The notes below the pieces were generated by a model, which was not told where the DNA came from, made no database searches, and saw nothing but the letters and a program-made list of their open reading frames with translations. Below are positions 51,731-55,477 of a stretch of 64,000 bases of DNA, in pieces. The number at the start of each line of letters is the position of its first letter. The stretch's first letter is position 1. A program made the translations under genes and the position numbers. Source of the stretch: a virus (taxonomy: Duplodnaviria; Caudoviricetes); the IMG/VR virus record IMGVR_UViG_2974508059_000001, positions 64,001 through 128,000 of that record; one strand, written 5' to 3'.

Positions 51731-51756
51731 GGAAACCTTAACCTTTAGGAGTGTGT

Positions 51757-52137
51757 ATGTCAGCCTTACGAGTATGGACAATTCAGATGGGCCAGTGGCG
51801 TAAAGCCGTGGAGAAAGACATACCCCTCCTGAATATTACAATCAAGTCCGGTGAAGCTATCTTTGCACCGGACTGGGATTTCTTGATGACGTATAAAGAT
51901 TCCGCCAAAACCCCCGAGGATGAACGCATTTACACTCGGGCGTATGCCGCGAAGATTAACCGTAAACTCAAAGAATTCCCGAATAAGTTTTCAGATATAT
52001 TTAATAACAGTGAGATAGCCTTAGCCTGTTATTGTCCGGCCGGTGAATTCTGTCATCGGCATTTGTTTGTCAAAGTCCTACAACAGCTCGGTAAGCAACT
52101 CGGTAGAGAAGTTATTTACATGGGCGAAATCACTTAA
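51757..52137 (+). CDS. DUF488-like protein
   Basis: FAPDW, Y...Y, IALACYC...FCHRHL. Confidence 0.65.
   Translation: MSALRVWTIQMGQWRKAVEKDIPLLNITIKSGEAIFAPDWDFLMTYKDSAKTPEDERIYTRAYAAKINRKLKEFPNKFSDIFNNSEIALACYCPAGEFCHRHLFVKVLQQLGKQLGREVIYMGEIT
51989..52012 (+). promoter_or_regulatory. Putative intragenic early promoter, class I
   Basis: tttcagatatatttaataacagtg in an AT-rich patch about 150 nt upstream of ORF 52164. Confidence 0.45.
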
Positions 52138-53928: not shown

Positions 53929-54267
53929 ATGTTCGGTTGGTTCCGACATTACAAACAGTTAAAGGAAGAGCACGCCGTGTTAACCGAGACCACGGAGTTT
54001 CAGGCTCAACTGATCGACGTGCTTCGTGAACAGGTAAAAGCAGCCACCGGTCTCGCGAACACACAGCGCAACACCATAGACCTGCTGAGCAAGAACCGCG
54101 ACATAAATGAGCGGACACTTGATCTGGTGTTGACCATACTCGCCACCGCAGTCTACGAGCGACGTGACCCACTTGACGCCATTGGTCGGGTGTTTAGAGC
54201 GATGTCACCAAAAACCTGTGCTCGGGTTGCAAAATTAATATTAGCTGAAAGGAGTAATAAATGTTAA
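53929..54267 (+). CDS. Coiled-coil hypothetical protein
   Basis: GGAG RBS; heptad pattern. Confidence 0.7.
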   Translation: MFGWFRHYKQLKEEHAVLTETTEFQAQLIDVLREQVKAATGLANTQRNTIDLLSKNRDINERTLDLVLTILATAVYERRDPLDAIGRVFRAMSPKTCARVAKLILAERSNKC

Positions 54268-55436
54268 AACCACGCAAGACCCGTAAGAACCGTGCTCAAA
54301 TAACGTTCCGTGAAGACGGGGGAACTACTTACTACTCCCCGAACTGCAAACCCCTGAAGCACACTAAGGAACAAATTGATACCCTGGCGAAAATAGTCTT
54401 GCAACGTCCCGCCAGCATTTGGTACGGCTTGCGTGCGATACAAGGGCACAACAACCGACCGGACTATCCGTATCATGCTTTACGGGCAATGTCGGAGAAA
54501 GAATGGAACTTCCATTGGCAATGGAAAGCCTTATCGCGCGCCGCACATGTTGACCAAGTGGAACAGTGTGCTCTTCGTGACGAAGTTAACCCACTGGACT
54601 GGTCTTGGCAGCCTGAGTTCCTGCAAAACTTGGATTACCTCACCCGCAAGGCGTCGCTGACCGATTACCTAATTGGCTTCGACCCGGGCCGTCCTGAAGG
54701 TTCAGCGATGGCGATGGTGGTCAAAGGTCGTCAGCCGGGGCTGTTCTCCGCAGACGCTATTCGTACTGGTAAATCGGACTGGCAGTTACACGCTGCAATA
54801 GCGCAAGGGCCAGATGCGGTGAAGGAACTTATCGCACAGCGCCTTGCTAAGCTGCCTGACACGGAGATGCCTCTCAACCGTGAACGTTGGGCGGGACTGA
54901 TAGATGAGAACCAGCCCGTGGCAAAGGCATCGCGGATGCCACTACCAGCAGGCAGACTCAAGATGTCGCGTGAGTTTGTCGTCTCAGAGAACAGCCTCGA
55001 GCGCGGGGGTTTTGAACACACGGTGGGCGGCAACAAACCTATCGGTGTTCACCTCAAGCAGTCCGTGCCGGTCCTGAATAATCCTGAACTCGTAGGGGTT
55101 GACCCTTATTCCCCAGACTTAACGACTGAGCAGAAAGCGGCCATCGTTGCAGAAGCCAAAATTAACTCAGCTTACTTCTTCAGTATTCTAAGAAACCCAG
55201 CACCAGACGGGAGCAGAACCACGCCGTTCACGGACGTTGAGAAGCAAGAGATTCAACTGCATTACGAGTATCACCACCCCTACCACAACCTCGATGTCTC
55301 CACGAAGTATTACTTCCCGGTCATTCCATCGGATGAAGTGTTTGCATTTCCGGGTCGCGGCATGACGCCGTTCACGCCACAGCATGACCCTGACCATCTG
55401 AATCTGCCACTGGGTTCTAAACTCGAAGACGAATAA
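54261..55436 (+). CDS. Hypothetical protein carrying terminase-large-subunit-like segments
   Basis: AAGGAG RBS; LNNPELVGVDPYSPDLTTEQK..I..E...N..YFF..R.P; YLIGFDPG; KGRQPG. Confidence 0.6.
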   Translation: MLKPRKTRKNRAQITFREDGGTTYYSPNCKPLKHTKEQIDTLAKIVLQRPASIWYGLRAIQGHNNRPDYPYHALRAMSEKEWNFHWQWKALSRAAHVDQVEQCALRDEVNPLDWSWQPEFLQNLDYLTRKASLTDYLIGFDPGRPEGSAMAMVVKGRQPGLFSADAIRTGKSDWQLHAAIAQGPDAVKELIAQRLAKLPDTEMPLNRERWAGLIDENQPVAKASRMPLPAGRLKMSREFVVSENSLERGGFEHTVGGNKPIGVHLKQSVPVLNNPELVGVDPYSPDLTTEQKAAIVAEAKINSAYFFSILRNPAPDGSRTTPFTDVEKQEIQLHYEYHHPYHNLDVSTKYYFPVIPSDEVFAFPGRGMTPFTPQHDPDHLNLPLGSKLEDE

Positions 55437-55445
55437 AAAAGAAGC

Positions 55446-55477
55446 GGTAGCCTTAGGGCTACCCTCTTTTATTTTTT
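55446..55477 (+). terminator. Rho-independent terminator
   Basis: ggtagcc-ttag-ggctacc followed by a T-rich tail. Confidence 0.8.

Follow-up and report, generated by a model that had tools for sequence, protein, structure and literature searches.

How does a piece of the DNA-packaging terminase come to be encoded a second time in the genome of a jumbo phage, far from the terminase gene itself, and what could it be kept for? This question is raised by an open reading frame (ORF) in a stretch of 64,000 nucleotides, here called the window, which spans bases 64001-128000 of the 244,950-bp virus record IMGVR_UViG_2974508059_000001. The record is about 99% complete, and the relatives of the source phage are Erwinia and Salmonella phiKZ-like jumbo phages. 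The ORF (54261-55436, plus strand) encodes a protein of 391 amino acids (aa) that we call P0001. An initial annotation, made from the letters of the window, had presented this protein as a mosaic of terminase signature motifs and a possible decoy for terminase-sensing immunity; the ORF and the two peptides that it singled out, aa 272-317 (55074-55211) and aa 136-163 (54666-54749), are all encoded at these positions. We find that P0001 is very probably a chimeric, non-enzymatic protein that occurs only in one small clade of phiKZ-like jumbo phages of the Erwinia type. With the same high confidence we describe its build as an orphan N-terminal part of ~258 residues followed by an old, catalytically dead copy of residues about 33-120 of the terminase's large subunit (TerL).

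The relationship to TerL was recovered by several comparisons. In PHROGs, aa 270-323 of P0001 match positions 101-155 of phrog_2 (terminase large subunit) with an E-value of 4.5e-6, and a tblastn search of 50,697 phage records with the whole protein matched 157 of them, nearly all at TerL genes and always through aa about 257-350. BLASTP aligns aa 272-350 with residues 46-120 of the phage's own TerL at 39% identity (E 5e-12), and hhalign, comparing the profile of the P0001 family with that of TerL, places aa 259-324 on TerL 33-98 (prob 97.9, E 5.7e-13), which bears out the likeness to the N-termini of phiKZ-type TerLs proposed in the initial annotation. When a TerL hidden Markov model (HMM) was run over the whole 244,950-bp genome, it matched TerL and window 55035-55268 only. 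The alignment between the two proteins ends exactly at the start of the TerL Walker A motif, from where P0001 goes on as YFPVIPSDE.

Structure prediction is in line with these alignments. In the AlphaFold2 (AF2) model of P0001, the sole confident part (predicted local distance difference test, pLDDT, 70-83) contains helices at 289-301, 303-311 and 325-338, which correspond to TerL helices 63-75, 77-84 and 101-111; in TerL, a strand at 115-119 then leads into the P-loop. Four residues that are invariant in TerL (W78, R82, E83 and G102) are substituted in the P0001 segment, and the pattern L.N.E...DP....LT.EQKAAI..EAK.N..YF is invariant among family members; the TerL-like helix-loop is among the most invariant stretches in the members that keep the segment. 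By all these comparisons aa 259-350 is identified as a true but diverged TerL paralog.

The phage's genuine TerL is encoded 118 kb from the P0001 gene, outside the window (G000:C1:236257-238365; L007:458-2563). It is complete, with 702 aa and a Walker A motif, RQHGKT, at 121-127, and its AF2 model (pLDDT 85) has T4 gp17 (3cpe) as the top Foldseek match, with an E-value of 1e-21. This TerL shows no Pfam family at E 0.1 or below except a spurious coiled-coil match, and it carries a C-terminal helical tail of ~80 residues past the nuclease domain. Since it has its own N-terminal segment, we rejected the P0001 gene as an exon of a split or intron-interrupted terL. A recent copy of the phage's own terL was rejected too: the segment is 39% identical to both own and foreign TerLs, and a tree built from its 92 columns unites the family in a single clade (100/100), whose long stem, with 1.5 changes per site, joins an unresolved cluster of Erwinia/Salmonella-type TerLs. 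A single long-stemmed clade of this kind points to one old capture.

The family has about 10 members, P0002-P0007 being 47-99% identical to P0001. Long forms of 387-431 aa are P0001-P0007, P0131 and L006, and reduced forms are P0130 (298 aa), P0132 (199 aa) and P0134 (114 aa), the last with the N-terminal module (N-module) fused to the C-terminal end. All three reduced forms come from related lineages and are devoid of the TerL-like part; the phage encoding P0130 has a TerL (P0012) that is 86% identical to that of the window phage. Stand-alone N-module ORFs of 72-77 aa also belong to the family. The N-module is the sole part common to all members, and the core at aa 80-202 is found in all but the shortest forms. 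The 419-aa protein of Erwinia phage vB_EamM_Kwan (P0007) and the 431-aa protein of pEa_SNUABM_11 (QXO09584.1) are true members, in the same slot and with the same architecture as P0001, to which they are 35-47% identical overall; an added middle insertion and a shorter tail set them apart from it. The database entry of the Kwan homolog reads 'putative terminase large subunit', a misleading label with nothing but a 90-residue fragment behind it.

The N-terminal end of these proteins is arranged in several ways. The N-module has two paralogous types, A (MLKPRKTRKNRAQ...) and B (MLKPKKRKARTQ...), which occur in three arrangements: module A joined to the body in the window gene, module B joined to the body in P0004, and a small ORF of 74-77 aa with A followed by B-body in other relatives. 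We read this pattern as a series of tandem duplication, fusion and loss. The synonymous divergence (dS) between the P0001 gene and P0004 is uneven: it is about 2.7 for aa 1-79, falls to 0.12 for aa 80-202 and rises again to 0.43-0.56 in the remainder. The P0001 gene is therefore a recombinational mosaic itself, and the pattern indicates that N-modules were exchanged. Ratios of nonsynonymous to synonymous divergence (dN/dS), calculated by the Nei-Gojobori method with a custom script, are lowest (0.07-0.16) in the C-terminal tail, which is the most constrained part of P0001, against 0.16-0.30 for the TerL-like part and 0.2-0.35 for the whole gene. Such values, well below 1, indicate that the long forms encode a working protein.

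The enzymatic parts of a terminase are missing from P0001. That no complete terminase domain is present had been noted in the initial annotation and holds for Walker A, the ATPase core and the nuclease domain alike. Nothing in P0001 aligns with TerL 121-346 by BLASTP or hhalign, which leaves the protein without Walker B and the rest of the ATPase core. A likeness to Walker A had been seen in KxRQxG; the sole alignment to the TerL Walker A region, through P0001 aa 119-177, has a BLASTP E-value of 1.4, and both KGRQPG and TGKSD were rejected as candidates for want of a conserved GK[ST] P-loop, G170 of 'TGKSD' giving way to R in three members (Kwan, pEa_SNUABM_11 and P0130).

The GxDPG motif, which had been likened to the first strand of the TerL nuclease domain, is no more than suggestive. 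Profile comparison of the N-terminal part with TerL repeatedly picks aa 126-155 against TerL 398-427, where the nuclease domain has its first beta-hairpin, and pairs IGFDPGRPEG-SAMAMVV with IGLDTSEAVGRDAIAMSIV. With a four-member profile of aa 1-271 the score was 24.3 in a scripted run and 25.4 in the comparison tool, against a null of 16.5 +/- 2.8 (99th percentile 24.35; 1 of 150 shuffles reached 25.4). An eight-member profile scored 26.6 (null 16.2 +/- 2.7; 99th percentile 24.3 and highest value 27.6 in 100 shuffles) and, once cut to aa 81-160, 27.7 (null 13.9 +/- 2.6), a value that none of 60 shuffles attained. This column-shuffle null is lenient, because shuffling breaks strand periodicity. 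The match scores above most shuffles; its HH probability is only 2-3%, and the pEa_SNUABM_11, P0130 and P0132 members do not share the Asp (Asp141). We regard aa 126-156 as possibly, though probably not, a vestigial nuclease hairpin. Beyond this marginal match of 29 columns nothing of the nuclease domain was found in P0001: TerL 428-702 is unmatched, aa 156-246 bear no likeness to it (38 of 60 shuffles do equally well), and in profile comparison no part of TerL resembles aa 1-80. A tandem-duplication junction, in which a nuclease part is followed by an N-terminal part, was rejected, being backed only by the hairpin match.

Outside the TerL-derived segment, P0001 is an orphan. The whole protein has no match in Pfam, and aa 1-271 have no relatives outside the family in Pfam, PHROGs, NCBIfam, PADLOC, PDB sequences or the ESM Atlas; an exhaustive profile search with aa 1-271 against 1.84 billion representative proteins returned six proteins, all of them family members. 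The AF2 model of the whole protein, calculated from a 6-sequence alignment, has a pLDDT of 42.7 and is unusable outside aa 270-340, with low confidence in the core. In the variable middle region, the Kwan homolog has a 31-residue insertion relative to P0001, the same stretch being present in the pEa_SNUABM_11 homolog, and P0005 and P0006 have a 12-residue deletion. The 114-aa deletion form P0134 retains the first few residues of the tail together with the stretch just before it.

As listed in Table 1, the gene stands between a small upstream gene and a depolymerase gene, and it is the final member of a long co-directional gene chain with a strong terminator after it. The last 7 nt of the upstream 112-aa gene are also the first of the P0001 ORF, an overlap that recurs in relatives with the long form. 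The hairpin that follows P0001 has a perfect 7-bp GC-rich stem between an A-run and a T-run, with a terminator score on either strand; it is predicted to end the accessory gene chain ahead of the depolymerase gene. All family members share one slot, after a small-gene run and directly upstream of the Phage_tail_beta/EPS-depolymerase gene. SPN3US and Stratton have unrelated small ORFs instead, between a conserved 99-aa gene and the virion-paralog array, which defines the slot as a variable region. Stratton gp149 (417 aa), which has a similar position, was considered as a homolog and rejected as unrelated to P0001.

Table 1. Features of the P0001 gene and its surroundings, in window coordinates except where a locus is named.
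Feature	Position	Strand	Description
Upstream 112-aa gene	53929..54267	+	product helical, weakly coiled-coil-like
Whole ORF, P0001	54261..55436	+	391 aa, stop codon counted in; reading frame open
N-terminal basic module 'A', aa 1-79	54261..54497	+	pI (isoelectric point) 10.1; MLKPRKTRKNRAQ...
N-module sites	window 54261-54497; L006:3001-3225; L004:753-977; L003:6001-6234
Conserved orphan core, aa 80-202	54498..54866	+	motifs FHWQWK, IGxDPGRPEG..V.KGR.PG, KSD.QLH..GP.AVK.L
Possible vestige of TerL nuclease beta1-beta2 hairpin, aa 126-156	54636..54728	+	suggestive only
Variable middle region, aa 203-258	54867..55034	+
TerL-derived segment, aa 259-350	55035..55310	+	paralog of TerL aa 33-120: three helices and a strand before Walker A; no P-loop
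Acidic, Pro/Gly-rich C-terminal tail, aa 351-391	55311..55433	+	pI 4.5
Intrinsic terminator-like hairpin	55446..55477	+	GGTAGCC-TTAG-GGCTACC and T-run; 10 nt past the P0001 stop codon
Depolymerase gene downstream of P0001	55637-57535		phrog_4250 'EPS depolymerase', E 9e-243; Pfam Phage_tail_beta in relatives

Three further observations concern this neighbourhood. The small-gene run that ends with P0001 begins with a gene for a DUF488-N3a protein of 128 aa (PF22751, E 1e-8; window 51751-52137), which is found in every relative examined. The depolymerase gene has its own upstream region of 200 bp and is followed by at least five paralogs of DUF7941/phrog_1037 virion proteins. Finally, a k-mer look at the window found the exact octamer AGATAGAT on the coding (plus) strand of five intergenic regions (1749, 10138, 12284, 36999 and 45604), against about 0.2-0.3 expected for a 7-mer; the octamer is a possible promoter element in this group of phages, and in the same k-mer look it did not lie directly upstream of the P0001 gene.

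What could a TerL piece of this kind do? A gene that is dispensable, lineage-restricted, recombining and under selection, and that keeps a non-catalytic surface of TerL, leads us to favour, tentatively, P0001 as an accessory protein with a TerL-derived interaction module; we hold this to be possible rather than probable. The captured piece would mimic the N-terminal face of TerL as a protein-interaction module, and P0001 would dock onto whatever that face contacts, either another TerL subunit or a DNA-recognition or packaging cofactor. Docking would then tune or interfere with the assembly of the packaging motor, be it the phage's own or that of rivals, and P0001 would be dispensable and not a core packaging subunit. 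The interaction step is suggested by analogy with phage lambda, in which gpA uses its N-terminal ~48 residues to bind gpNu1, the small subunit. The alternative offered in the initial annotation, a regulator of packaging that would compete for the partners of terminase, is compatible with our findings. Several points weigh against an interaction module. The captured segment is not known as an autonomous domain, belonging in TerL to the ATPase N-subdomain, and AF2 leaves the rest of P0001 without a confident fold. The conservation of the segment could come from its own folding needs alone. Moreover, any packaging role has to be dispensable, since the phage encoding P0130, by its TerL a close relative of the window phage, does without the TerL-like part.

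Nearly as likely as the interaction module is a structural leftover. Here, illegitimate recombination would have put ~90 terL codons into an unrelated accessory gene, in which the piece serves as structural filler; that P0001 has a role separate from terminase and packaging, whether in host takeover, as a virion accessory or otherwise, is to us an equally tentative proposition. The location of the gene in a variable region rich in clade-specific ORFs, the mosaicism within the gene with its swapping of N-modules, and the loss of the segment in several lineages and of the TerL-invariant residues within it all agree with such an origin, as does the distribution of the parts, with an N-module in all members and a core that only the shortest forms lack. 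Mere filler accords less well with a TerL-derived helix-loop that is among the most invariant stretches where it is kept, or with purifying selection on the segment, and the independent truncated TerL paralogs of other jumbo phages, described below, hint at recurring use.

Returning to a module that interacts with packaging partners, its target might be the motor of a rival. A dominant-negative TerL fragment would poison motor assembly of co-infecting related jumbo phages, the phage's own TerL being insensitive. Competition between co-infecting nucleus-forming jumbo phages is documented and counts in favour of such a weapon, as do the accessory, fast-evolving and patchy character of the gene, its exchange of modules, and a segment that is about equally close to its own TerL and to that of SPN3US (39% each). 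On the other hand, there is no sign that the own TerL diverges at the matching surface, and we consider this explanation unlikely.

The immune decoy that the initial annotation had put forward as a possibility fits the anatomy of P0001 poorly. By its terminase-like motifs P0001 would titrate or block terminase sensors such as Avs1-3, Upx or another sensor. A genuine TerL-derived surface is indeed present, the gene is accessory with an arms-race-like distribution, and terminase-sensing systems are widespread (PMC13601566, PMC12931631). What Avs3, Avs2 and Upx reportedly recognise, however, is the ATPase core of TerL (Walker motifs plus ATP) or unfolded core strands, and in the case of Avs3 also the natively folded TerL nuclease (PMC13601566); Avs5 senses another jumbo-phage protein (PMC12931631). 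The features reported for recognition by Avs3, Avs2 and Upx are missing from P0001, which has neither Walker A nor Walker B and at most a vestigial nuclease hairpin with a non-conserved Asp. Besides, ligand binding normally activates Avs, and the T4 terminase paralog vs.8 is toxic together with EcAvs2, triggering the sensor and not blocking it (PMC13601566). P0001 has no PADLOC match and resembles no other known protein family, and we judge a decoy for these sensors very unlikely.

Just as improbable is a decaying gene remnant without function, as which the truncated and internally deleted forms of relatives, the split arrangement in pEa_SNUABM_11 and the low AF2 confidence might be taken: dN/dS is 0.2-0.3 across regions and <0.16 in the tail at dS up to about 0.5-1.8 in unsaturated pairs, and at least seven lineages keep intact frames of 387-431 aa.

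On the sequence evidence, P0001 is thus a real partial TerL paralog, from a family whose Kwan member was previously mis-annotated; the 'putative terminase large subunit' of Kwan is herewith corrected, and the reading as an Avs decoy finds no support in the anatomy of the protein. Packaging in these phages is the setting where P0001 could matter. For SPN3US, no small terminase (TerS) homolog was reported, TerL being its only T4 packaging-enzyme homolog found (PMC5694885). P0001 itself was rejected as a small terminase: it has no TerS family match in Pfam or PHROGs, and its family comprises only about 10 members, with truncated forms in close relatives. We know of no small terminase homolog across the phiKZ-like phages either, which bears on how TerL is recruited and regulated in them. 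A conserved non-enzymatic copy of the TerL N-segment, together with longer paralogs in two Vibrio jumbo phages, marks a likely interaction surface and offers a handle for finding TerL partners. Should there be no interaction, P0001 would be another chimeric phage ORFan.

Compared with the large terminases from which it derives in part (phiKZ-like, T4 gp17-type, phrog_2), P0001 shares homology between its residues 259-350 and TerL 33-120 but has no Walker A, Walker B, coupling motif or functional nuclease domain, and it is 391 as against 702 aa long; the TerL-like piece is C-terminal, behind 258 residues unrelated to TerL. T4 itself encodes, besides its real terminase, an ATPase-like paralog of it, vs.8 (PMC13601566). 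Like P0001, vs.8 is a partial TerL paralog present in addition to the real terminase, but its ATPase fold is whole, Walker A and B included, and it activates EcAvs2 (PMC13601566); P0001 retains only the segment before Walker A.

Closer parallels exist among jumbo phages. A tblastn search with aa 30-125 of the phage's own TerL gave 331 places in 320 phage records, and three of the records with extra matches to the TerL segment were examined. In Vibrio phage vB_pir03, a 321-aa protein (QNI21149.1; L020:1438-2403, MT811961.1 188001-188966) aligns by hhalign with TerL 16-178 (prob 99.6, E 1e-24); its Walker A is degenerate (RQRGRS), and this short paralog is common only to vB_pir03 and phage C-ZP2022. 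In Vibrio phage Yong XC31 (MK308674.1), an ORF of 336 aa (L024:871-1881, minus strand) has a TerL-like N-terminal part (E 6.9e-12 with the TerL aa 30-125 query) and an intact Walker A (GRQDGKT). As with P0001, these are second, short TerL-derived genes beside a complete TerL in phiKZ-like jumbo phages. They differ from P0001 in that they start with the TerL-like part, include Walker A and have no orphan N-terminal part; they are of independent origin and occupy another genomic place. It is conceivable, if doubtful, that truncated TerL-derived proteins are recurrent 'packaging-motor mimics' of nucleus-forming jumbo phages, which engage a TerL-binding factor via their N-terminal surface; if so, such mimics would blunt a host sensor of that TerL surface or sabotage the terminase of a co-infecting rival. 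Truncated TerL paralogs do, in any case, arise repeatedly in phiKZ-like phages, and among those seen here the P0001 family stands out as the most reduced and as the only chimeric one.

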